Virus record (IMG/VR): IMGVR_UViG_3300048850_000049
Location: 1-55,863 of that record
Reading direction: 5' to 3' (one strand)
Origin: a virus
Taxonomy: Duplodnaviria > Heunggongvirae > Uroviricota > Caudoviricetes
Length of the DNA stretch: 55,863 bases
Part shown: positions 1 to 43,743 of the stretch, one piece after another
Layout: the number at the start of each line of letters is the position of its first letter
Numbering within the stretch: position 1 is the stretch's first letter
The notes under the pieces: model-generated
Database searches by the model: none
Told to the model about the DNA's origin: nothing
Seen by the model: only the letters and a program-made list of their open reading frames with translations
Program-made: the position numbers and the translations under genes

Positions 1-332
1 ACCTGATGTTCCAGGACGGATGGACGGTTTCAGCCGGTATCGGCCACAAATTCAACGAGCAGTGGAGCGGATCGGCGCAGATCAGCTGGGATCGCGGCAC
101 GTCCACCGGCCTGACCACCCAGACCGATACCTATCTGTTGTCAGGCGGTGTTGCCTATTCGCCGAACAAGAATGTCGAGCTTCGCGTCGGGGGTGCCGTT
201 GGTATCCTAACGGCCGGCTCCTTTGGACCAACGGATTGCCCAGGCAATCAGCCATGCGGCACGGAAGTGACCTACGACTTCGGCGATGACTTTGTGTCGG
301 CGCTGTCGATCTCCGGCAAGGTCAAGTTCTGA
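1..332 (+). CDS. fadL: OmpP1/FadL-family outer-membrane beta-barrel, C-terminal part (5' truncated by the window)
   Basis: GWTVSAGIGHKFNEQWSG...WDRGTS...GVAYSP..NVELR beta-strands; terminal Phe (GKVKF); frame open at the window start. Confidence 0.75.
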   Translation, partial: LMFQDGWTVSAGIGHKFNEQWSGSAQISWDRGTSTGLTTQTDTYLLSGGVAYSPNKNVELRVGGAVGILTAGSFGPTDCPGNQPCGTEVTYDFGDDFVSALSISGKVKF

Positions 333-3326: not shown

Positions 3327-3718
3327 ACCCGCACGACCTCGCCCAGCAGATGATTGCGAAGATCGAGGAGAGCTACGTGATGGCGTGGAACGGTCGCGGC
3401 ATCATTCAAAAGCCGTTCTTCCATATGTCCTGGCACTTCTTCGACCGTCGCCTGGGCGATGTGGTGCGCGAGCGTGTCTTCTCCGTAGAGGCGATCGAGA
3501 TCGATGAAGAATACCAGCGAAAAGGTATTCTGACAGCCTTCATCAAGATCCTCCTCGAGGACGACAGGCGGCCGGCGATCCCAATGCGGTTCATTCACTT
3601 CAAGGATTGCGGTCCGGACCTTTGCAGGCTGTTGCAACGCCTTCACTTTCATCGCCACCCGGTCGGACCAGGAACTGATTACTGGCATCCGGTCACAGGA
3701 CAAAAGGAACTACTATGA
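3323..3718 (+). CDS. GNAT-fold acetyltransferase-like protein
   Basis: VEAIEIDEEYQRKGILTAFIKIL resembles GNAT motif A (Q/RxxGxG/A). Confidence 0.55.
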   Translation: MNPHDLAQQMIAKIEESYVMAWNGRGIIQKPFFHMSWHFFDRRLGDVVRERVFSVEAIEIDEEYQRKGILTAFIKILLEDDRRPAIPMRFIHFKDCGPDLCRLLQRLHFHRHPVGPGTDYWHPVTGQKELL

Positions 3719-4291: not shown

Positions 4292-4495
4292 ATGATTGGT
4301 AACGCCATACTGCGCGACGGCCAGCTCGACAGCGAGTCCTCGATCGGGCAAGCGAATGACGGGACATTGTTCCTGCGGCTTCGCGACCAGGTGTTCCGGA
4401 TCGAGGTTACTGAAAAAGACCAGGTCATCGATCATGCGATGGCGATGGAAGAAGCCGAGAAGTTCATGAACGCCTTGCCACACACGTTTAAGTAG
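4292..4495 (+). CDS. Hypothetical protein (MIGNAILRDG...)
   Basis: Internal ATG of track ORF 4136..4495. Confidence 0.55.
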   Translation: MIGNAILRDGQLDSESSIGQANDGTLFLRLRDQVFRIEVTEKDQVIDHAMAMEEAEKFMNALPHTFK

Positions 4496-4505
4496 GGAAG
4501 CAAAG

Positions 4506-4724
4506 ATGCCAAAATACACGGTTGAGATACGGCAAGTCGGGATCGAGGCAGATAGTCCTATCGATGCGGCCATGAAGATCGCGTCCCTGATCGTCCAGAT
4601 GCAAACAGTTAACGTTATGGACGTGATCGATGAAAACGGCACCAGACACGCGATAGAGTTGACCGTTGAACAGACCTATCTGGCGATCGCGGATGCAAAT
4701 GCAATCAGAGCAACGCTAGGATGA
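4506..4724 (+). CDS. Small hypothetical protein, paralog of 4721..4951
   Basis: YTVEIRQVGIEADSPIDAAMK. Confidence 0.7.
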   Translation: MPKYTVEIRQVGIEADSPIDAAMKIASLIVQMQTVNVMDVIDENGTRHAIELTVEQTYLAIADANAIRATLG

Positions 4725-4951
4725 CGACCTACCGAGTAGCAACCTATGTCACCCTCGAGGCGGATAATCCGAAGGAAGCGGCGATGAAAGCCTTTGTGCT
4801 TCACGACGAGATGACCCCTGAGGACTTTGAGGTTGTCTCTCTTCCGGATATCAATGCTGTCGAGATCACCCTCGAGCATGAGGATAAGGACGAAGCCAGG
4901 GCCCAGCAGAGGGCTGGAGCCTACTTCCGAACCACGAACCTCAGGGACTAA
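4721..4951 (+). CDS. Small hypothetical protein, paralog of 4506..4724
   Basis: YRVATYVTLEADNPKEAAMK. Confidence 0.7.
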   Translation: MTTYRVATYVTLEADNPKEAAMKAFVLHDEMTPEDFEVVSLPDINAVEITLEHEDKDEARAQQRAGAYFRTTNLRD

Positions 4952-4955
4952 AACA

Positions 4956-4983
4956 AAAGGCGCCCTACCCGGCGCCTTTCTCT
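4956..4983 (+). terminator. Rho-independent terminator
   Basis: AAAGGCGCC-ctaccc-GGCGCCTTT followed by pyrimidines. Confidence 0.7.
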
Positions 4984-5000
4984 TACCTGCATGTCACCCA

Positions 5001-5032
5001 CGGCTATCCAGCTAGATGGCTAACCAGCTGTC
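5001..5032. repeat. 8-bp tandem array (parS-like)
   Basis: cggctatc cagctaga tggctaac cagctgtc. Confidence 0.45.
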
Positions 5033-5109
5033 GCGGGCGGATCCCATGCGACAATCTAGCTCCTTTGGGTGATTCGACTCTCGGCGAATCATTTCCAATA
5101 TAGGCAGCC

Positions 5110-5454
5110 ATGAACGATCAAACCTGGAAAGATGTGGAGATTGAGCACCTGGCCGTGCAGACCACGACCCTCGGGCGTATGCGCGTGTGCCAGACCGTGC
5201 GCGACCTTGCAGAGCAACTCCTCTACGACTGGCCGGACGAACCTGGTGAAAAGCACCTTAAGGCGCGTGAAGCCTGTATAGCCGCGCTCGAGGGCAAACT
5301 CTCGCCTGGCGTCTGCAGAATTGCCTTCCTGGAAGCGGCACAGGAGGACGGCGTGTGGACCATGGCGCCTAATCGACCTGAGCACGTCCCCGGCTACACA
5401 CCGCCTAGATGGAGCAACAAGCGCACAAGTCCATGGCGCCGCGGTAAACGATAG
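5110..5454 (+). CDS. DUF982-family protein
   Basis: V..TVRDLAEQLLYDWP...GEKHLKAREACIAALEG....AFLEAAQE typical of this rhizobial family. Confidence 0.75.
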   Translation: MNDQTWKDVEIEHLAVQTTTLGRMRVCQTVRDLAEQLLYDWPDEPGEKHLKAREACIAALEGKLSPGVCRIAFLEAAQEDGVWTMAPNRPEHVPGYTPPRWSNKRTSPWRRGKR

Positions 5455-6587: not shown

Positions 6588-7582
6588 GACAGATCTCCAA
6601 ACCTTTACATCAAACCTGCCCAACCTTTACATCCGGCAAGCTTAGGCCACTCGAGGCCGCCTAAACAGCTATTTCAGGACCGGCCGATGTAAACGTTGCG
6701 ACCTGCAAAAAGCTCCAAAAACCTGACCAACGTTTACACTACCTTTCCACTATCTTGACGAGAACACCCGTTTTCAGCTTTTTTCGATTTTAGGCAAGGC
6801 AAACAGACACAAGAACCTCAATCATCAAAAGACTCATAGAAGCTCATAGAGAGCGACCAGCGTAGTGAGACGAGCACCGAAGCGTCTACGACAACCCTCG
6901 CAGTCACAGACGAACGTCGTAAGAACCCGATACGCCAGACACAGCAAGGGTTGAATACATATTCGACAGAGAGACCGATTGAAGCCCGACTAGTCGGTAG
7001 CCTAGAGAACATAGAGAACCAACAGAGAGAGAACACCCCAAGAACGAACCATGACGCAAGAGAGGAGCCCTTGAGAGAGTATGCCAGGGAGAGATATGAG
7101 TGGAGGGGAGAGATTGAGGGAATAGTTTGTGAGGAGGTATGCGGCCGCGCCTCGGTTCTCCAACGCCTTCCAACCAAGCCCACGACCTCCCGTGCCGATC
7201 CGCGGATAACCATGGCACCAACTGCCCTCGCCTGCCCTGATTGTCATCCAAGATGACCTGCGTTAGACAGAATCAACGAGATAGAGCGATGTCACCCGGA
7301 TCGTTCTCAAAGCGGAGCGCGCAAGCGTCCCTCTTTCTTCGTAGTTGCTGATCTTGCCGTCGGGTGCGAGCGAGACACCTTAAAGGCGCGTTGGTCTAAT
7401 CGGCTGACGCGCCTCTTTTCATGTCGGGGAATGGGTAGCTTTCCATATACCGGAGATCAGGATTCTCGACCTTATGGATCGCCGCGCCTTCCGATCTGCC
7501 GGACCTTTTCCTATGGCTGACAGAGGAGGTTCGCCCTACGTTATTTATTACCTAACGTATATTAAGGTTTAAGAAGGTAAGT

Positions 7583-7863: not shown

Positions 7864-8838
7864 ATGACCAAGAATTCCAAGAAGAACGCCGCAATCGTCG
7901 CCCCAACAACTGTTGATACACTGCCGGATATGACTTCCTTCTTCAATCAGGCTGCCGAAGCCGTCGTCGAGATGGGTGCTGAAGCCCAGGCACTCGCCGA
8001 GATCGAGGCCCAGGAGGCTCACGACGCCGCTCTCAAGCAGGCTGAGGCCAATGCCCTTGCGGCCGCTGAGAAGGATCGTCCGCTGGAGACCTTCGAAGGC
8101 GAGACCGGTTACTGGACGCAGACGGACGAAGGCCCGGTCTGGACCAAGGTCGAGGCTACTGTCGAAGAGGCCAGCGAAGATCCGGCCGACCTGCCTGTCA
8201 TCGACCATGTGCCCGGCGACCTGAAGGTGATGAAGAACAACTTCACCCTCGAGCAGAAGGAAGAGAAGAAGGGCGAGATCGTGTCCGAGTTCGCCAACCG
8301 CAAGGCGTATGAAGCCTCGCTGCCGGGTCTGTCCTCGAAGATGCTGCCCAATCTCGAAGCCGAGGAGAAGAAGATGGCGACGATCGGCGCTGCAGGTCTG
8401 TTCCTGGCGATGGATGTCGATCCGAACTTCATCAACCGCGAGGTGTCGACCGGTTCACGCTTCAACGTCTACGCCTTCCAGAAGGTCAACGACCTGATCG
8501 TTGCACTCGACGGCGGGTTCATGCAGAACGCCATCAACCGGGCGATCGTGACCTCGCTCTTCAACTTCCGGGACGCAGGCATTCCCTTCACCGGCGTTGC
8601 AGCACTCGCAGCCGCATCCGACAAGGTGAAGGCTGACCGGGCGATCACCAAGCACCTGGTTCGTCACACGGTCTCGGCGAATACGGCGTCTACCCAGAAG
8701 TCCTCGACGATGGTCGCTCTGAAGGCGCTCGGTGTCATCACCAACTCCGGCACGCGTGGTCACGAGGTCTGGACCTTGACCGATACGCCTGCAACGCGCC
8801 GGCTCGAAGAGGTCGTCCGGGGCAAGATTGCAGCCTAA
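7864..8838 (+). CDS. Early protein with an acidic Ala-rich N-terminus and a conserved C-terminal domain (possible wHTH); paralog of 10212..10820
   Basis: AGGAG RBS; strong codon bias; shared motifs listed in findings; ends KIAA. Confidence 0.85.
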   Translation: MTKNSKKNAAIVAPTTVDTLPDMTSFFNQAAEAVVEMGAEAQALAEIEAQEAHDAALKQAEANALAAAEKDRPLETFEGETGYWTQTDEGPVWTKVEATVEEASEDPADLPVIDHVPGDLKVMKNNFTLEQKEEKKGEIVSEFANRKAYEASLPGLSSKMLPNLEAEEKKMATIGAAGLFLAMDVDPNFINREVSTGSRFNVYAFQKVNDLIVALDGGFMQNAINRAIVTSLFNFRDAGIPFTGVAALAAASDKVKADRAITKHLVRHTVSANTASTQKSSTMVALKALGVITNSGTRGHEVWTLTDTPATRRLEEVVRGKIAA

Positions 8839-9256: not shown

Positions 9257-9288
9257 TAGCTAAATAGCTATTTAGCTAATAATCTAAC
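9257..9288. repeat. 8-bp tandem array (parS-like)
   Basis: tagctaaa tagctatt tagctaat aatctaac. Confidence 0.55.
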
Positions 9289-9326
9289 AATGTAAACAGC
9301 AACTTAGCTAGAAACGGAGACTACAA

Positions 9327-9659
9327 ATGTCCTACACGACCGAGATCTTCACGAGCCGTGCAATCAAAGACGCCGCAAACGCCCTCGACGTGCTTCAGGC
9401 TGCACAACAGCACAAACTGCCCGCTGACGCCAAGAAGCACGCCCTGCTCGCCGTCGTCATGAAGGAAGCTGCCGATCGGTTTCAGAAGCTCGCCTCGCAG
9501 CAGTCGTCGCTGTCGCCTGACGAATTCTTCCGTGCAGCCTTCGAGCGTGTGCGTGCAACGCGGGCAGAACAGGCGCTCATCGCCAAGTCGCGCCGTGAAA
9601 AGCGCGAGCGTGACACCGCTGCGCGTGAAATGTTCCTCGCTGATCTCGCCGCAGCGTAA
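9327..9659 (+). CDS. Hypothetical helical early protein
   Basis: GGAG RBS; biased codons; ends DLAAA. Confidence 0.8.
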   Translation: MSYTTEIFTSRAIKDAANALDVLQAAQQHKLPADAKKHALLAVVMKEAADRFQKLASQQSSLSPDEFFRAAFERVRATRAEQALIAKSRREKRERDTAAREMFLADLAAA

Positions 9660-9687: not shown

Positions 9688-9720
9688 AGCCGCTACTCAG
9701 CAAGGGTAGCGGCTGTTTGT
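9688..9720 (+). terminator. Rho-independent terminator
   Basis: AGCCGCTAC-tcagcaagg-GTAGCGGCT-GTTTGT. Confidence 0.6.
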
Positions 9721-9754
9721 GGGCTCACTGGGAGGGCACGGACCATGCGGTTTA

Positions 9755-9792
9755 GGGGAACGGCTTAGGGTCAAGGGACTCACGGTCAGGAA
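9755..9792 (+). repeat. 38-bp G-rich repeat, copy 2
   Basis: GGGGAACGGCTTAGGGTCAAGGGACTCACGGTCAGGAA. Confidence 0.8.
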
Positions 9793-9969
9793 AAATCCCT
9801 TAGGGGTCGGGCTCCGCCGAGCGCCCTTCCGGGCAATCGGCTAAAGGGCTGCCCCTCGCCTGGGCTAACCGCGGGGTTCCTTGGCGTGCCGCGGTCAAGC
9901 CTGGTCCGGAGGAATGGGGAAAGGGGTCGTGAGGAACGGGTAGGTAGGGCCTATAGGGGTGTGCGCCTG

Positions 9970-9994
9970 CCCCTACCCCTGCCCCGCGCGCCCC
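9970..9994 (-). other. Four-tract G-quadruplex motif
   Basis: Minus strand reads GGGG-CGCGC-GGGG-CA-GGGG-TA-GGGG. Confidence 0.55.
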
Positions 9995-10164
9995 GCGTCA
10001 TGCGCTTGCGCAGTCTCGATAGTGCTTCGGATATATGCTCATTCGCTCATAGAGCGTCACAGACGCGTTTTCACGTCATTTGCGAGTATCGCGTGCTCAT
10101 CGCTCTATACGCTTGCCAGCGACTCTTAAAATCGATTGTCTCAAATAGCATTCTGACAAACAGC

Positions 10165-10189
10165 AAAAAGCGCTCATATAGAGCGCTTT
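10165..10189 (-). terminator. Terminator of 10212..10820; its stem contains no GG or CC
   Basis: Minus strand AAAGCGCTC-tatat-GAGCGCTTT-TTG. Confidence 0.7.
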
Positions 10190-10211
10190 CTGTTTTCGGT
10201 GTTTGCAGTGA

Positions 10212-10820
10212 TTATGCTGCAATCTCGCTTTCTTCGCTTTCGCTTTCTTCATCGCTTTCAACTTCGATCATCTCGCAATCGATTGCGAAAGCAGCGCACA
10301 ACGCTTGCGCAAGCGATGTTAGCGTGACGTTGTAAGCGTTCTTGATGTCATGACGTGCATTGATGATATTGAGCGTTACAAGCGCGTCACGTGACGTTTG
10401 CGACTGTGCTGCAATCGTTTCAGCTGTTTGAATGATGTTGCGCTGAAAAACTACATGCTTGACGCTTTCGTCTACTTTCGTGTCACGCGAGATTGACGCT
10501 TCGATCATCGCTTGCGTCAACACTACGTCATGACGATAGCAATTGATTGCAGTTCTGAAAATCGCATATGTGTTTTCGTTCAAGTCTTTCGCGTTGAGCG
10601 CTACTGCTTGCGAAGCAAACTTGACTACTTTCTCACATGCATACATTGCACGTGTAAAGCGAGATGCGTCGACGCTTGCGTCACTTAGCAATGCTGCAAG
10701 CTTATCGTTCGCAAGCATAGTGCGAAGCTTTAGCATCTTCTTTTCATTAGATGCACTGCAATCGTTCTTCTTAGCTTCATCAAGACGTGCAGTCATTGCA
10801 GTGAAATAAACATTAGACAT
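10212..10820 (-). CDS. GG/CC-free gene; 202-aa protein without Gly, Pro or Trp; paralog of 7864..8838
   Basis: Has its own promoter, RBS (AGAAGAAAGAG) and terminator; motif homology to 7864..8838; ends EIAA. Confidence 0.85.
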   Translation of the reverse strand: MSNVYFTAMTARLDEAKKNDCSASNEKKMLKLRTMLANDKLAALLSDASVDASRFTRAMYACEKVVKFASQAVALNAKDLNENTYAIFRTAINCYRHDVVLTQAMIEASISRDTKVDESVKHVVFQRNIIQTAETIAAQSQTSRDALVTLNIINARHDIKNAYNVTLTSLAQALCAAFAIDCEMIEVESDEESESEESEIAA

Positions 10821-10895
10821 TTTGATATCTCTTTCTTCTAGCGTTAATGAGCGTTGCTTGCTCGACTTCGAAACGACTGCTTTCTGCGTTGTTCG

Positions 10896-10938
10896 TTTCG
10901 ATGTTTAGACTTTAGTGGAAGTCTTAGAACGTGTCGAA
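10896..10938 (-). promoter_or_regulatory. Promoter of the GG/CC-free gene
   Basis: TTCGAC-N18-TAAAGT, then CTAAACATCGAAA as at 7801-7815. Confidence 0.6.
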
Positions 10939-10998
10939 TGATCTGATGGGGATGCCTTCTGTGCGCCGACCACTCCGGTCAACCTAACCTCCCATGCC

Positions 10999-11038
10999 TA
11001 GCCAAGTAGCCACTTAGACATCTAGCCAGGTATCCATT
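10999..11038. repeat. 8-bp tandem array (parS-like)
   Basis: tagccaag tagccact tagacatc tagccagg tatccatt. Confidence 0.6.
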
Positions 11039-11099
11039 TCCGGTAAGTGCCCTCCCCTACCCCGACCAGCGTTGACGCTTGATCCTATCCTCCCATGGA

Positions 11100-11131
11100 T
11101 AGCTCTTTAGCCATTTAGATGCCTAGCTGAA
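11100..11131. repeat. 8-bp tandem array (parS-like)
   Basis: tagctctt tagccatt tagatgcc tagctgaa. Confidence 0.55.
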
Positions 11132-11133
11132 CA

Positions 11134-11151
11134 TAAGTAAGCATTTACTTA
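11134..11151. promoter_or_regulatory. 18-bp palindromic operator upstream of the tRNA operon
   Basis: TAAGTAA-gcat-TTACTTA. Confidence 0.85.
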
Positions 11152-11179
11152 TTTCCCTGAGGATGGTAGGAAGGAAATA

Positions 11180-11255
11180 CGCGAGATAGCTCAGATGGTA
11201 GAGCGGCGGGCTCATAACCCGCATGTCGTTGGTTCAAGTCCAGCTCTCGCCACCA
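11180..11255 (+). tRNA. tRNA-Met(CAU), initiator-type, encoded CCA
   Basis: 76-nt cloverleaf; C1xC72 mismatch, G2:C71, C3:G70, A73; GGG:CCC in the anticodon stem; TTCAA T-loop. Confidence 0.93.
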
Positions 11256-39016: not shown

Positions 39017-42000
39017 TTACTTTCCGTTCTCATAGCGATACCGCGATCGCAACGAACGCACTCGTCCAGGTCACTCCCGCCCGTATTCGTGGTTCGGGAG
39101 GCGGTGGAGGGAAGGGCGGCGGAAGCGGCGCGTCCAATGACAAGAACACCATGCGCTCGCGGGCTCGCTTCCGGCTGATCGAAGCCGTCTCCGAAGGTCC
39201 GATCGCGGGTCTCGTCAATGGCGAGCAGTCAATCTATTTCGACCAGACGCCGCTCAAGAACGCAGATGGCACCTATAATTTCAAGGAAGTCGTCTGGAAG
39301 GACCATAAGGGAACTGCCGATGAGGGCTACTTCAACGGTCACTCGGCTGTTGAAACGCCGGTCAGCGTTGAAACCCAGGTTCGCAAGTCCGTCGGTGACG
39401 TGCAGCGCACCATCGTTGATGAGAACGCCGATGCCGTTCGTGTCATCATGCGCGTTCCCTCGCTCGTCAAGCAGGATGACAAGGGCGGTCTGAAGGGCAC
39501 CAATCTTTCCTATGCTATCGACGTGCGCGCCTTCAACGGCTCGTGGACGACTGCGGTCACGAATGAGCTGAACAAGGAAAAGGCGCTTTCGCCCTTTCAG
39601 ATGGATCACCGCATTGATCTGCCCCAGGATGGTTCGCCCTGGGATATTCGCGTTCGCCGCATCACCGACGACTCAACCGACGACAAGCTCCAGAATGATC
39701 TGTTCTGGGAAGGCTATGTCGTTCTGGTCGAAGGCAAGTTCACCTATCCGTTCACCGCTGCCTTCGCAATGGAAGGCAACGCGGAAGAGATGGGTTCCAA
39801 CATCCCGCCGCGCAGTTACCACATCCGCGGCCTGCTCGTTCACGTCCCCTCGAATTACAATCCCCTCACGCGCGTCTATACCGGCGTCTGGGATGGCTCC
39901 TTTAAGATCGCCTGGACCAACAACCCGGCCTGGATCTTCTACGACCTTATCGTCAATGATCGCTATGGCCTCGGTGAGTTCATCACGCCCGAGATCGTCG
40001 ACAAGTGGTCGCTCTACACGATCGCCCAGTATTGCGACCAGCAGGTTAAGTCCGGCTTCCGCAATGGCGACACGGGCGCGGATATCTACGAGCCCCGCTT
40101 CACCTATAACGGCGTCATCAACACCAAGGATGAAGCCTTCTTCGTGCTTCAGACGATCACGAAGGCCTGGCGCGGCATGGCCTACTGGGCAATGGGCCAG
40201 GTTTTTGCTGCAGCCGACATGCCTGCAGATCCGGTTCGCCTGGTCTCGCCGGCAAACGTTATCGGTGGTGACTTCGAATATGCAGGAACCGCCCTTAAGG
40301 CCCGGCACTCGGTCGTCATGGTCAAGTGGAACAATCCCGACGACTTCTACCGGCCCGACACCGAGGTCGTCATTGATAGTAAGCTGCTGCACAAGAACGG
40401 CTGGCGCGAAAAGACCGTTCAGCTTCAGGGCTGCACGACGCGTGGTCTCGCGCATCGCTTCGGCAAGTGGGTCATCGACAGCGAGCAGAACGAAACCGAC
40501 ACGCTGACCTATTCGGCGTCCTGGGATCACGCAGAGGTGCGGCCCGGTGAAATCGTTGCAGTCTCGGATCCGCGTAAGGCTCAGATTCGCGCATCTGGCC
40601 GCATCGTCTCCCATCATGGCCTTCAGTTGGAGCTCGATTCCGACTTCGAATGGAATGAAGGGGAAACCTATCAGCTGATGCTGACCCTGCCTTCCGGCGA
40701 GATCGAGACCAAGCCGATCCTGGCGTTCCTCGACGATCGCACGGTGCGCGTGTCCTCAGCCTTCTCCAATGAAGCCCAGCCCGACGCGATGTGGACCATC
40801 AAGGGATCGGATATTGCGCCGCGCCTTTACCGCGTTCTCAATGTCGAGGAGAGCGAGCCCAACATCTTCAAGATCACGGCGCTGTTCCATGATCCCTCGA
40901 AGTATGCCCGCGTCGAAGAAGGTATCGTCTTCACGCCGCTTCCCTATGACCGTCCTTCCAAGCTTGTTTCCCCGCCGACGAACCTTCTCGTCAAGGAAAC
41001 CGGCTTTATTACCAACGGCAAGGAATACCATTCCCTGACGCTCTCCTGGACTGCACCGCAGAACCAGCTGGTGCGCGGCTTCATCGTGTCGGTCGATACG
41101 CCTGAAGATGGCTCTTTCTCGCTTGGATCAACTGACGCTGCGTTTTTCGAGACGCCGAACACCACGTCCGGCACCTACAAGTTCTATGTTCAGACGATCG
41201 GCTACACCGGCGCGATCTCCGAAGCGGCCACGATCGAGTTCGAAGCTGTGGGCGCAGAAGGTTATGCTCGCCCGACCGTTACCAATCTCGAGCTTGTCGA
41301 CAGGCCGGAAAGCCTTGAGTTCACTGGCCGCGACCTCAAGTTCCGCTGGAAGAACAATTTCGCCCTGACTAAGGACGGCCCGCTCGATAGCGAGTCCTCT
41401 CCGCATTACGTCTTCAATTCGGTCAAGCTCTATCACGGCGGAACCGGAGAACTTCTGCGCACCGAGCGCGTCGTCGGCTCCGGCTATGTCTATGATATCG
41501 GCTCGAACCGCGCTGATTGCGCAAGGCTCGGTCATGCCACGCCGACGCGCGTGGTCCGCGTCGACGTTACGGTCTCTGACGTGTTCGGGCGCACTTCGGA
41601 TGCGGTGAGCCGCGTCTTCTCCAATCCCGTGCCTGCGCCGGTGGTGCCTTCCTACAACGTCGTCGGTTCGACCATCTTCTTCAGCTACGAGATCCCGGCC
41701 GATCCCGATCTGGCAGGTGTCCTCATCTGGCGCGAGCTTAATCCTGAAATCGATGTCGATACGATGCTGCCGTTCTACGACGGTCTCGACAATATGCTCA
41801 CCATCCCTGGCGAGCCCGAGACGGTCTACTTCTTCAAGATGGCTGCCTATGACAGCTTCGGCAAGGAAGGTCTGAACTACGGTCCCGAATTCTTCATCAC
41901 CACGCTGAGTGACGGTGCCGACTCGGAGCCGCCTGCTACGCCGACTGGTCTCGACGTTACGTCCGAGATCGGCATCGACGGCCGTGCCCGCGTCACCGCC

Positions 42001-43743
42001 ATCTGGAATGCGAATACTGAAGAAGACCTGGCCGGTTACGATCTCGAGATCAAGCAGGCGAGCGGCAACTTCGTATCTTATCCGACTGCCAATAATGTAT
42101 TCGAATTCGATAGTCTTCCTGGCCTCGTCTACAGCTTTCGGCTGCGCGCACGCGACAAGAACGCCAATGCGTCGCCGACGACGAATGTCCTGATCCATAC
42201 GGTCGCAAAGGACATCGTTCCCCCGGCCGCTCCGACGGCTTTGACCATCTCGACCGGTCTGACCGCGTTCTGGCTTTCCTGGATCAACCCGGCTGATCTT
42301 GACCTCGATCATATCGAGATCCTCGAGGGCGTCACGAACGTCTCGGCTGACGCTACGGTCATCGGCACGTCTGCTGGAACGTCCTTTGCGCGCACTGGCC
42401 TTGAGAGCAACGCACAGCGCTTCTACTGGGTTCGAGCAGTCGATACGTCAGGCAACACGTCGGCGCTCTCCCTGATCGCTCAGGGCACGACTGCAACGCT
42501 TCCTGACGCTAAGCGCATTTCAATCTCTGGCCTCGTGCTTACGCCGAACTCCCCGAGCGCTAACAAGGTCGCGTGGGGCGCTTTCAGCATTACCTATGGC
42601 GTGCCGGGCGGCGTTCCGACCACGAAGTCGATTGAAGCGAGCAACGTTACCTGGACGGTTGGATCGCTCTATCTCTACTACGTCGAAGGCGAGACGATTC
42701 TTCGCTCGACGGCCGATGTCGCGACCATCTTCACGCAGTCCGGCCACCCGATCGGCGTCTACCGCGGGGGAACTGATATTCAGTTGACCGACGGCAAGAC
42801 CATGATCGACGGCAACAACGTTATCACCGGCACGATTGGCGCCCAGCAGCTCGTGGTTAATGATGCGATCATCACCAACAGCTTGCAGCTGAAGGATGCC
42901 GTTATTACCTCGGCGAAGATTGAGAACCTCTCGGCCGACAAGCTCACTGCCGATACGACGATCTCCAACACGATCATCGTCGGGGGAGGCGATACGCTTG
43001 CAACGATCCGCGATCGCGCCGCTGACCCGGCCTCGCGCGTCAACGAGGGCGCAACGCTTATCGAGCCTGGTAAGATCCTGATCGCTGGCGAAACCTCGCT
43101 TGAGAGCTGGCGCGCGGGCGCTGATCTGACCGAAATTAACGGTGGCTCTGTTGCGGCCAACACGCTGAAGGCAAATTCGGCCGTGATCGGTATGCGCGGC
43201 ATCACGATCGACGGCATCACTTTCGAGCATAACAGCCCGTCCGCTAACCGTGTCTCCTGGACGGCGGGCACGATCGCTTACACTGACGATGCAGGCGCAA
43301 GCGTCACCCGTGCGATCACCGCTTCGAATGCGCTGTGGTCAGCTGGCACGCTCTATCTTTACTGGGTCAAGGGCGCGACGACGATTTCGACTTCGACTGA
43401 CTTTGCAACGGCCAATGACGACAACAACGTTGTCCTTGGCTGCTACAAGGGCGGCATCTTCCTGTTCGCCTCTTATGGTCGCACGGTTATTGACGGTGGG
43501 CAGATCAAGACGCAGAGCATCACGGCCAATCAGATGACGGTTGGTTCGGTAACGGCTCAGACGATCAGCGTAACTTCGCTTGCTGCAATCAGTGCAAATC
43601 TTGGCGCCGTCACTGCAGGTTCGCTCAACATCAATAACCGTTTCATCGTGGATAGCGCAGGCAACCTGACCGTTCGTTCTGCAACGACTGGCGCACGCCT
43701 CGAAATCACCAGCACGTATATCCTCATGGTGGATGCCACCTGA
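39013..43743 (+). CDS. Central tail fibre / tip attachment protein (lambda gpJ-like) with FN3 domains
   Basis: SEGPIAGL, WTNNPAWIFYDL, DKWSLYTIAQYCD, RPGEIVAVSD; PATPTGL and PAAPTAL FN3 starts. Confidence 0.95.
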   Translation: MITFRSHSDTAIATNALVQVTPARIRGSGGGGGKGGGSGASNDKNTMRSRARFRLIEAVSEGPIAGLVNGEQSIYFDQTPLKNADGTYNFKEVVWKDHKGTADEGYFNGHSAVETPVSVETQVRKSVGDVQRTIVDENADAVRVIMRVPSLVKQDDKGGLKGTNLSYAIDVRAFNGSWTTAVTNELNKEKALSPFQMDHRIDLPQDGSPWDIRVRRITDDSTDDKLQNDLFWEGYVVLVEGKFTYPFTAAFAMEGNAEEMGSNIPPRSYHIRGLLVHVPSNYNPLTRVYTGVWDGSFKIAWTNNPAWIFYDLIVNDRYGLGEFITPEIVDKWSLYTIAQYCDQQVKSGFRNGDTGADIYEPRFTYNGVINTKDEAFFVLQTITKAWRGMAYWAMGQVFAAADMPADPVRLVSPANVIGGDFEYAGTALKARHSVVMVKWNNPDDFYRPDTEVVIDSKLLHKNGWREKTVQLQGCTTRGLAHRFGKWVIDSEQNETDTLTYSASWDHAEVRPGEIVAVSDPRKAQIRASGRIVSHHGLQLELDSDFEWNEGETYQLMLTLPSGEIETKPILAFLDDRTVRVSSAFSNEAQPDAMWTIKGSDIAPRLYRVLNVEESEPNIFKITALFHDPSKYARVEEGIVFTPLPYDRPSKLVSPPTNLLVKETGFITNGKEYHSLTLSWTAPQNQLVRGFIVSVDTPEDGSFSLGSTDAAFFETPNTTSGTYKFYVQTIGYTGAISEAATIEFEAVGAEGYARPTVTNLELVDRPESLEFTGRDLKFRWKNNFALTKDGPLDSESSPHYVFNSVKLYHGGTGELLRTERVVGSGYVYDIGSNRADCARLGHATPTRVVRVDVTVSDVFGRTSDAVSRVFSNPVPAPVVPSYNVVGSTIFFSYEIPADPDLAGVLIWRELNPEIDVDTMLPFYDGLDNMLTIPGEPETVYFFKMAAYDSFGKEGLNYGPEFFITTLSDGADSEPPATPTGLDVTSEIGIDGRARVTAIWNANTEEDLAGYDLEIKQASGNFVSYPTANNVFEFDSLPGLVYSFRLRARDKNANASPTTNVLIHTVAKDIVPPAAPTALTISTGLTAFWLSWINPADLDLDHIEILEGVTNVSADATVIGTSAGTSFARTGLESNAQRFYWVRAVDTSGNTSALSLIAQGTTATLPDAKRISISGLVLTPNSPSANKVAWGAFSITYGVPGGVPTTKSIEASNVTWTVGSLYLYYVEGETILRSTADVATIFTQSGHPIGVYRGGTDIQLTDGKTMIDGNNVITGTIGAQQLVVNDAIITNSLQLKDAVITSAKIENLSADKLTADTTISNTIIVGGGDTLATIRDRAADPASRVNEGATLIEPGKILIAGETSLESWRAGADLTEINGGSVAANTLKANSAVIGMRGITIDGITFEHNSPSANRVSWTAGTIAYTDDAGASVTRAITASNALWSAGTLYLYWVKGATTISTSTDFATANDDNNVVLGCYKGGIFLFASYGRTVIDGGQIKTQSITANQMTVGSVTAQTISVTSLAAISANLGAVTAGSLNINNRFIVDSAGNLTVRSATTGARLEITSTYILMVDAT

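Follow-up and report, generated by a model that had tools for sequence, protein, structure and literature searches.

A phage-plasmid transcription unit stripped of every GG and CC dinucleotide, possibly a pioneer gene hidden from a GG/CC-requiring activity

T5-like phages are stopped by restriction-modification, CRISPR and Ssp systems only if the terminal repeat that is injected first contains the target (PMC5389539, PMC10644984), and Davison has proposed that the DNA-degrading enzyme of T5 itself finds no sites in the first-step DNA of this phage (10.1101/866236). Here we analyse a locus in IMG/VR virus record IMGVR_UViG_3300048850_000049 (Caudoviricetes), a viral contig of 119,863 bp whose first 55.9 kb, positions 1 to 55,863, are the stretch called the window below. 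In the window, a gene on the minus strand (10212-10820; product P0001) belongs to a transcription unit from which every GG and CC dinucleotide is missing. The contig falls into a lineage of Rhizobium siphophages with phage-plasmid features, together with B1VFA, V1VFA-S and RHph_X66 (PMC12509600).

With T5 and the Tequintavirus phages the family shares a size of about 120 kb, the siphophage type and direct terminal repeats; as in T5, the repeat, where we place it, holds two inversely oriented units of small genes, function unassigned, beside a repeat-rich non-coding stretch. There is, however, no sequence or profile relation to T5 proteins, and the DnaA-box array that T5 possesses is missing. 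Moreover, the repeat measures 3.6 kb instead of 10 kb and only part of it is purged, the avoided word is a dinucleotide whose removal is total and costs three amino acids, and restriction sites continue to be avoided in the remainder of the genome, so that blanket protection is not evident.

Selection against a short targeted word is also known from phages that avoid restriction sites or protospacer-adjacent motifs (PAMs) (PMC12174588; Kupczok and Bollback 2014, PMC4246573), and the genomes carrying the unit show in addition classical avoidance of GTAC and of 6-bp palindromes. The known cases are statistical and genome-wide and concern words of 2-6 bp, whereas here the removal is complete and concerns one transcription unit; the common host CRISPR types have other PAMs, which are undepleted here. 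A further parallel is offered by the leading end of T7 with gene 0.3 (ocr) and by the Autographiviridae early region (PMC12455610), that is first-entering DNA with inward host-type promoters and an anti-defence gene whose expression has to precede the exposure of the remaining genome. There is no homology to ocr, which is a DNA mimic, whereas the product here is a predicted winged helix with acidity in its tail only. To our knowledge, T7 shows no dinucleotide purge. Chlorella viruses encode Nt.CviPII (CCD) together with M.CviPII, a virus enzyme of near-dinucleotide specificity that destroys host DNA; they protect themselves by methylation, whereas the phage family studied here has no methyltransferase. 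At the RNA level, messenger RNAs (mRNAs) without ACA escape MazF. The unit resembles the mRNAs that escape RegB (GGAG, PMC1702504) or PA-X (10.1101/2022.07.08.499385) in that a short nuclease word is missing and the Shine-Dalgarno sequence is rebuilt without GG; it differs from them because both GG and CC are purged, non-transcribed tails included.

The dinucleotide count gave no GG and no CC in the 717 bp between 10200 and 10916, as had been noticed in an earlier note made from the letters of this DNA alone, and the full gap extends from 10198 to 10917 (719 bp, 44.6% G+C). Base composition predicts 71.8 sites for this zone, which agrees with the roughly 70 that the earlier note had estimated by hand; the density of the whole genome (12.8 GG/CC sites per 100 bp, 56.3% G+C) predicts about 92, and at that density the chance of an empty zone is P ~ e^-92. 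Counting along the full 119,863 bp showed that the locus is unique: the next longest GG/CC gap outside it measures 72 bp, and no gap of comparable length exists for other dinucleotide classes. The stretch 9995-10199 contains just three sites (10029, 10116 and 10198) and site density is high in the flanks (24-34 per 100 bp in 9700-9999, 14-21 per 100 bp in 10900-11099), both again in agreement with the first inspection.

The cause of this absence is selection on the nucleic acid. When the protein, already without glycine, proline and tryptophan, was kept fixed and synonymous codons were redrawn with the codon usage of the genome, 53.5±5.8 sites were obtained, with a minimum of 31 in 20,000 trials; when the gene's own codons were permuted among synonymous positions, 16.6±2.9 sites remained and no trial reached zero, hence the purge also acts at codon junctions and in the untranslated parts. 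The protein lacks the three amino acids because every GG and CC was removed from the gene. G and C as such are not avoided: CG and GC are 1.6-2.3 times over-represented in the unit, in line with the abundance that had been remarked before. A general avoidance of restriction sites inside the unit was rejected, since other 4-bp and 6-bp palindromes occur as expected (GCGC 55 observed, 57.6 expected; TCGA 35 observed, 30 expected), and so was a minimisation of RNA structure, the transcript being not unstructured (minimum free energy -236.5 kcal/mol, z = -2.7). The parts of the unit and its immediate surroundings are the following.

10198-10917, no strand: zone without GG or CC, 719 bp, extending over the -10 box, leader and coding sequence to the terminator.
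10212-10820, minus strand: coding sequence of the purged gene (P0001), 202 amino acids without glycine, proline or tryptophan, with an acidic tail, ending in -IAA.
10830-10840, minus strand: GG-free ribosome-binding site AGAAGAAAGAG, with an AGAAAG core complementary to the CUUUCU in the 3' tail of the host 16S rRNA gene; kept in relatives.
10909-10937, minus strand: predicted sigma-70-like promoter TCGACA-17-TAAAGT, whose spacer (TCTAAGACTTCGA in relatives) is unusually conserved.
10948-10956, minus strand: GGCATCCCC motif, about 10 nt upstream of the -35 box, kept in nearly all lineages.
10164-10192, minus strand: predicted intrinsic terminator, with a stem solely of GCGC/CGCG steps.
9995-10163, no strand: GG/CC-poor tail beyond the terminator, with two sites, carrying ATGAGC/TAGAGC-type repeats.
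9700-9994, no strand: very GG/CC-dense spacer (24-34 sites/100 bp) between convergent units, with G/C runs and inverted repeats.

The earlier note had placed the start of the clean zone near the -10 box and had described a Shine-Dalgarno sequence without GG, a terminator stem without GG or CC and a protein without glycine, proline and tryptophan, and all of these features were recovered: the first site upstream of the coding sequence (10917) falls in the promoter spacer between TCGACA and TAAAGT, the ribosome-binding site is AGAAGAAAGAG, the stem at 10192-10164 consists of GCGC/CGCG steps and the coding sequence 10820-10212 gives 202 amino acids. The upstream edge is marked by GGCATCCCC at 10948-10956, and the site at 10198 sits between stop codon and terminator. 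A second copy of GGCATCCCC, at 92499, was discarded since it lies in an island resembling transfer RNA (tRNA) genes, without a similar promoter. Host 16S genes in two genomes end in CACCTCCTTTCTAAGGA, so AGAAAG can pair with the distal CUUUCU; such pairing can be described, from the sequence, as an extended Shine-Dalgarno geometry in which the GGAGG core is given up. We take the mature host 16S end to include UUUCU.

Two further observations concern the same region. Four C-runs on the plus strand at 9965-9994 follow directly after the GG/CC-poor tail (GGGG-N5-GGGG-N2-GGGG-N2-GGGG on the sense strand) and are quadruplex-capable; they stand exactly at the border of the clean zone, and relatives do not clearly share them. 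The purged gene is matched without any difference, at 10205-10638, by a 435-nt contig of a soil metatranscriptome library, of which other contigs match scattered window genes; the match may reflect expression or DNA carry-over.

Orthologs exist in related phage-plasmids, where the earlier note had suggested looking for them, and the depletion is kept across the superfamily. In a tblastn search of 50,697 phage records P0001 matched three Rhizobium phages only, whose genes have 75-78% of their amino acids and about 70% of their nucleotides in common with the window gene and lie in clean zones of 851 bp (B1VFA, no site), 1279 bp (V1VFA-S, no site) and 768 bp (the third, one site). Homologs at 42-57% identity, from metagenomes, an Ancylobacter plasmid-like contig (63% G+C), Chelativorans and a genome of 41% G+C, have zero-site zones of 693-823 bp, with the exception of the Chelativorans copy, which has three sites; the genomes keeping the purge span 41-63% G+C. 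A profile search through 1.8 billion representatives gave 110 clusters, 69 of them without glycine, proline or tryptophan and 15 with one to three such residues. Three very distant members (profile E 1e-10 to 1e-4) still have clean zones of 756, 907 and 1490 bp, and ten divergent units summed to 8,483 bp contain no GG/CC site. One family member has a normal composition, with 111 sites and a GGAG ribosome-binding site. A truncated copy on a Rhizobium ruizarguesonis replicon (L008:6001-6414) has 36 sites in 414 bp. This copy is decaying, beside Fic, IS481-type transposase and resolvase genes, and its N-terminal part is still GG/CC-poor; the chromosomal relic is a molecular fossil of the purge, which is lost outside the phage context.

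The limits of the clean zone are conserved as well. In all lineages close to the window its start falls within a conserved block, made up of GGCATCCCC, after about 10 nt a -35-like TTGNNN, the conserved spacer TCTAAGACTTCGA, TAAAGT and a leader that opens with CTAAACATCGAAA; AGAAAG is found about 10-11 nt before the ATG in most lineages. At the other side the zone stops 10-60 bp past the terminator in loci L005 and L006, where a GGGGCRTCCC motif recurs, and runs 150-600 bp further in other lineages, through a tail with ATGAGC/TAGAGC repeats; the extremely GG/CC-dense spacer comes after the GG/CC-poor tail. In V1VFA-S it extends through an inserted second gene, also purged. Besides the conserved gene, the cargo purged in this compartment comprises V1VFA-S gene 038 and two L005 genes. 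The GG/CC-poor tail of a divergent lineage (L004:961-1224) is filled by about four tandem units of about 25 nt (…TATGCAAGATCGTGAATGTGTGACA…). In L006 a gene with an Acb2/Tad1-hairpin domain (sponge-type anti-defence) occupies 4329-4700, about 1.3 kb upstream of the purged unit, which fits, as judged by sequence, an anti-defence neighbourhood.

The position of the unit in the virion DNA was approached from published data. The two phages have been reported to have fixed termini, and their direct terminal repeats, given without coordinates, measure 3,605 bp (B1VFA) and 3,939 bp (V1VFA-S) (PMC12509600). B1VFA was mapped base by base onto V1VFA-S and every start was tested for a 3,605-bp segment corresponding to 3,939±2 bp. 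The sole genome-wide solution in B1VFA starts at 39631-39809 and ends at 43235-43413, giving 3,940 bp in V1VFA-S; the difference in length between the two repeats is due to a 332-bp insertion behind the purged gene. The repeat so inferred contains about 600 bp of non-coding DNA, a paralog of the purged gene, two small genes and the purged gene itself. The purged unit thus probably lies at the outer edge of the 3.6-kb terminal repeat, with its promoter at most about 150 bp from the edge and reading inward. The remaining features of the locus in the window are these.

7131-7140, plus strand: GAGGAGGTAT, located where, by homology, the terminal repeat is predicted to start; related, in inverted form, to the motif of the opposite boundary.
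7864-8838, plus strand: distant paralog P0046, 324 amino acids with an N-terminal extension, ending in -IAA; GG/CC normal (15/100 bp).
9327-9659, plus strand: convergent neighbour of the 060 family, 110 amino acids, ending in -AAA; sense GG 6 observed against 16 expected, CC normal.
10983-11093, minus strand: GGAGGWTAGG in two copies (10983-10992 and 11084-11093), near-exclusive to the locus in relatives.

The B1VFA homologs of both GGAGGWTAGG copies fall inside the predicted interval of the repeat end, and inverted GAGGAGGTAT is unique at the predicted repeat start; since the two motifs mark both predicted boundaries, the placement is independently supported. The Ancylobacter element has the same locus architecture. 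Two apparent signs of terminal repeats were set aside: the double depth at window positions 1-127 comes from two co-assembled strains, and the 'direct terminal repeats' annotated by IMG/VR in contigs G001 and G003 are assembly overlaps of 127 and 95 bp.

In two viral contigs, G001 (complete, 121 kb) and G002, the purge is partly lost while the protein is still almost free of glycine, proline and tryptophan; the synteny of the locus is intact in G001. The loss is unequal between the two words: G001 has 28 sense CC (48.7 expected) and 2 sense GG (22.8 expected), and G002 has 10 sense CC and no sense GG (binomial P 0.001 and 0.01, respectively). The neighbouring genes of the repeat, encoded on the opposite strand, show a deficit of GG in their own sense strand (ratios 0.21-0.45) and none of CC. 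The GG and CC constraints are therefore separable and follow the direction of transcription, which is suggestive of an RNA-level component or of a template/non-template-strand effect. It is suggestive and nothing firmer, because the Chelativorans copy (3 GG, no CC) and one L006 gene (no CC, 4 GG) are asymmetric in the opposite sense and codon usage pulls towards C-ending codons. Only an Rnl-like ligase (B1VFA_006) and a MazG-like open reading frame (B1VFA_153) are missing from G001 and kept by the other purged relatives, and they are not the agent, because the fully purged Ancylobacter element lacks them as well. The ligase, a 203-residue KxDG nucleotidyl-transferase protein (97454-98014 of the present genome, G000, beyond the window; B1VFA 4840-5451), adjoins an HD phosphohydrolase and is additional to RtcB; G001 has it deleted. 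With the phosphohydrolase it would be a second RNA-repair set.

The product of the purged gene was modelled with AlphaFold2 (pLDDT 89.4, pTM 0.84). The N-terminal half is helical, and the model confidently shows a winged helix at residues ~76-180, composed of three helices and a beta-hairpin wing. This part aligns to many winged-helix domains with middling scores (Z 6.5-8.3, root-mean-square deviation 2.2-3.1 Å), and no specific subfamily stands out in the structure alignments; the likeness to the winged helices of kleisin, MarR and ORC is a generic one. Foldseek of the model against PDB gave nothing at E < 0.001, P0001 has no family in Pfam and PHROG, and its relatives in the Atlas form unnamed clusters only. 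No match to the T5 pre-early proteins A1, A2 and Dmp was found by tblastn, Pfam or PHROG, and no convincing HEPN or PD-(D/E)XK nuclease motif was seen by eye in the family alignment. In that alignment the helix before the wing, a putative recognition helix (ETIAAQSQTSRDAL), is nearly invariant, which suggests that the product targets a conserved nucleic-acid site. The net charge of P0001 is about -7, and the acidity is confined to the tail.

P0046 is convergent with the purged gene and has a leader of the same type. In the structural comparison P0046 matches P0001 at rank 2 (template modelling score 0.67), the sequence paralogy is weak (hhalign E = 0.014, probability 3%), and the proposed paralogy would lean mainly on the likeness of the folds and on the common leader type. 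Nearly all proteins of the terminal repeat end in -AA (IAA at 10212-10820 and 7864-8838, AAA at 9327-9659), and so do relatives such as L002:3675-3932 (YAA) and L005:7081-7422 (CAA) and most members of the family alignment. These ends resemble that of the ssrA tag (a ClpXP signal) and may indicate a programmed instability of early proteins.

The reading that we favour, though tentatively, is that the purged unit is a pioneer (pre-early) gene at the terminal-repeat edge of a phage-plasmid, evading an activity that requires GG or CC. The unit would be the pioneer gene of a T5-sized phage-plasmid, within about 150 bp of one DNA end and reading inward, from which long-lasting purifying selection at the nucleic-acid level has stripped every GG and CC; an activity requiring GG/CC on DNA, or on DNA being transcribed, would then find no target in it. 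Since the phage cannot purge the 15,000 GG/CC sites elsewhere in its genome, it is the gene that would be made invisible, and a countermeasure or regulator could be made from it out of reach of that activity. The product, probably a short-lived winged-helix protein and most likely DNA-binding, would act first and protect, license or switch on the rest of the genome. The agent could be a nuclease, a nickase, a deaminase or a binder, and its source could be either a host gene or delivery by the phage. While the data show the purge, its action on the nucleic acid, how deeply it is conserved, its coincidence with the transcription unit, the fold and the loss outside the phage, we infer that the gene is expressed early, what its product does, and that an agent reading GG/CC exists and of what nature it is. 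A DNA compartment fits better than a transcript, because the tail beyond the terminator is purged too.

Escape from a GG/CC-directed activity had been the third alternative of the earlier note and, with its modification and PAM alternatives weakened, now ranks as the best remaining reading. In the overall order a DNA-level activity, of the host or delivered by the phage, precedes an RNA-level reader of GG, followed by PAM erosion and then by modification. It is possible, with somewhat less confidence than for the pioneer gene itself, that Hyphomicrobiales or these phages possess an undescribed dinucleotide-specific (GG/CC) nuclease, nickase, deaminase or RNA-directed enzyme, probably transcription-coupled or strand-dependent in its effect, which the phage answers with an invisible antidote or regulator gene at its first-entering end.

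Several points weigh against the pioneer-gene reading. The terminal-repeat position is inferred from published lengths, and the 100-170 bp from the inferred DNA end to the promoter are GG/CC-rich. Restriction sites of 6 bp are avoided throughout the genomes, so the product of the purged gene gives no T5-like blanket nuclease protection. A DnaA-box stop signal was not found, TKATCCACA with one mismatch forming no cluster near the locus (18 matches in the window, 15.7 expected), and P0001 has no T5 sequence relative in the tblastn search of the 50,697 phage records. In G001 and G002 sense CC has come back and sense GG has not, which is not what a strand-symmetric agent acting on double-stranded DNA predicts. 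The comparison of gene content between relaxed and purged genomes yielded no candidate agent, and we know of no agent with GG/CC specificity. Rho (5'-YC) was discarded as agent because TC is abundant in the unit, and DarT1, a G-directed agent on single-stranded DNA, because it has no sequence motif (PMC11543638).

The alternative that survives best, which we consider doubtful, is that the mRNA is hidden from a factor reading GG in single-stranded RNA, such as a RegB-like endoribonuclease or a translational repressor, serving abortive infection if encoded by the host and shut-off if encoded by the phage, and that translation continues through the GG-free ribosome-binding site. RegB of T4, which cleaves GGAG within Shine-Dalgarno sequences (PMC1702504), and influenza PA-X, which spares viral mRNAs (10.1101/2022.07.08.499385), are precedents. 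The clean zone coincides with the transcript, the Shine-Dalgarno core is swapped for an AGAAAG that is suitably spaced for pairing to the distal CUUUCU of 16S, the constraint that persists where the purge is relaxed is the one on sense GG, and of the two words sense GG alone is depleted in the neighbouring genes of the repeat; moreover, the family carries RtcB, the Rnl-like ligase and tRNAs, as expected under a conflict at the RNA level. On the other hand, CC is purged as fully as GG in nearly all lineages, for which one RNase specificity is insufficient, and the tails beyond the terminators are purged too. The Chelativorans copy and the L006 gene are asymmetric the other way, the RNA is not unstructured (z = -2.7), and no such GG-reading RNase is known to us in these hosts or phages.

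A second alternative, rather improbable, is PAM erosion, by which the unit would be the only DNA exposed to CRISPR before protection sets in and would have escaped type I-F systems or a type II-C Cas9 with an N4CC-type PAM by PAM mutations, repeated until neither strand retained one. In its favour, among two-letter words only the PAM is well known to turn any sequence context into a target, immunity against T5 is obtained only from protospacers in the first-injected repeat and is escaped by PAM or seed mutation (PMC5389539), and Pseudomonas phages deplete the CC PAM of type I-F (PMC12174588). Among 301 sampled genomes of the host order, Cas9 was found in 33 and Cas7f, of type I-F, in just 4; Cas8c (type I-C, 30 genomes) and Cse1 (type I-E, 12 genomes) are as common, and the units show no shortage of the corresponding PAMs (TTC/GAA 383 observed, 382 expected; AAG/CTT 469 observed, 338 expected). 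It is possible that a Cas9 with a CC PAM accounts for the purge, but it would need to be the sole CRISPR type that matters. The purge is furthermore universal across host families and from 41 to 63% G+C, and the strand asymmetry is not predicted. The possibility raised in the earlier note that the unit is PAM-free DNA is thereby weakened, type I-F being rare and the I-C and I-E PAMs undepleted.

As little probability is given to a weapon of the phage itself, that is a nuclease or nickase, delivered by the virion or made pre-early, for which GG/CC, occurring about every 7 bp, would be the cutting site in host DNA; the phage DNA that is then in the cell must be site-free, as Davison proposed for T5 A1 and the first-step DNA. 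Enzymes with recognition words of 2-4 bp serve chlorella viruses in this manner, namely Nt.CviPII (CCD) and CviQI (GTAC). An agent inherited together with the unit would account for the universality of the purge independently of the host, and the family has no methyltransferase for self-protection. GTAC is absent from six complete family genomes (G000, G001, G003, G004, B1VFA and V1VFA-S, the Ancylobacter element being among them), where 95-171 copies are expected from trinucleotide frequencies, as a phage-borne GTAC enzyme would produce; this universal lack, which spans host families, suggests either such an enzyme or a very widespread restriction system specific for GTAC. Against a weapon of the phage stand three points: no nuclease candidate was identified and the product of the purged gene has no nuclease fold, the two relaxed lineages show no matching gene loss, and the rest of the phage genome would need to stay outside the cell or be protected.

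The explanation preferred in the earlier note, a bulky and transcription-blocking modification of GG/CC in virion DNA, probably added by a ParB/ABC/GNAT cluster and sparing this gene alone so that it is read first, now appears very unlikely. It would account for the local exemption and for the transcription-unit limits, and modified CC cytosines, acting as template lesions, would make the constraint on sense GG the stricter one. By Pfam the cluster, upstream of the terminase gene, has two ParB_N proteins, a soluble ABC-type ATPase and a helicase; its other open reading frames have no Pfam family at E < 0.01 and none is a GNAT, the only PF00583 match, below threshold (13.5 bits), lying elsewhere at 3458-3649. 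No GNAT, N4/N6 or C5 methyltransferase, TGT/DpdA, thymidylate-synthase-like or hydroxymethylase-type enzyme was found in four complete family genomes. Palindromes containing GG/CC are avoided genome-wide (AGGCCT, CCCGGG, GGGCCC, TGGCCA, CCATGG), which means that the phage DNA is exposed to restriction enzymes and its GG/CC sites are cleavable, so a bulky adduct is unlikely. The avoided sets of 6-bp palindromes are lineage-specific, with GACGTC and GCATGC in G000, AGGCCT, CACGTG, CAGCTG, CCCGGG and GACGTC in G001, and AGGCCT, GGGCCC, GTGCAC, CCATGG and TGGCCA in the B1VFA group, and they could be used to mark which restriction systems the hosts possess. For B1VFA and V1VFA-S, standard Illumina libraries with enzymatic fragmentation gave even coverage save at the repeats (PMC12509600). 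Of the idea of a first-expressed gene, what stands is a real and strongly selected unit, which the inferred edge position fits; its rationale through modification by the ParB/ABC/GNAT cluster is unsupported.

A physical property of terminal DNA, such as a need of packaging or ejection to be free of A-philic GG/CC steps, would agree with a unit at the end of the inferred terminal repeat and is nevertheless barely credible, because the clean zone varies from 693 to 1490 bp, grows by whole genes and follows promoters and terminators, while the very tip and the adjoining spacer are extremely GG/CC-rich. Least of all do we credit immunity at the codon or tRNA level, in which glycine, proline and tryptophan are avoided since the matching tRNAs are attacked or scarce early: the composition of the protein and a Trp-like tRNA gene next door in relatives agree with it, but positions 2-3 of the codons, the junctions between codons (P < 5e-5), the leader, the terminator and the tail are free of GG/CC too, and as sole cause it is rejected by the permutation of the gene's own codons.

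Two repeat features of the surroundings remain to be described. Arrays of TAGCYA-like hexamers with 8-bp periodicity occur upstream of the 060-family gene (9257-9310) and in the interval from the purged gene to the tRNA genes (10998-11040 and 11096-11127); they have the look of arrays to which a single protein binds. An operator-like palindrome of the TAAGTAA-N4-TTACTTA type, dispersed in the genome, stands directly upstream of tRNA-Met(CAT) (11138-11155 and 11180-11255), in a region divergent from the purged gene.

The total removal of a dinucleotide, at the cost of three amino acids and of the normal ribosome-binding site, is the footprint of a very strong and very old selection. Such a footprint is the negative image of a molecular activity and tells the experimenter what to seek. 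The system is tractable, since B1VFA and V1VFA-S are cultured with Rhizobium leguminosarum hosts, and natural controls are available in the paralog of normal composition, which shares promoter type and repeat with the purged gene, in the lineages that are relaxed for CC and keep the constraint on GG, and in the decayed chromosomal copy. The agent, if found, would be an immune or takeover enzyme of a new kind, and perhaps a two-base-specific reagent as well. If the unit marks the first-entering DNA, the two-stage logic of T5-like phages would be extended to phage-plasmids, and the purge would provide a sequence signature for leading-end anti-defence genes in metagenomes.

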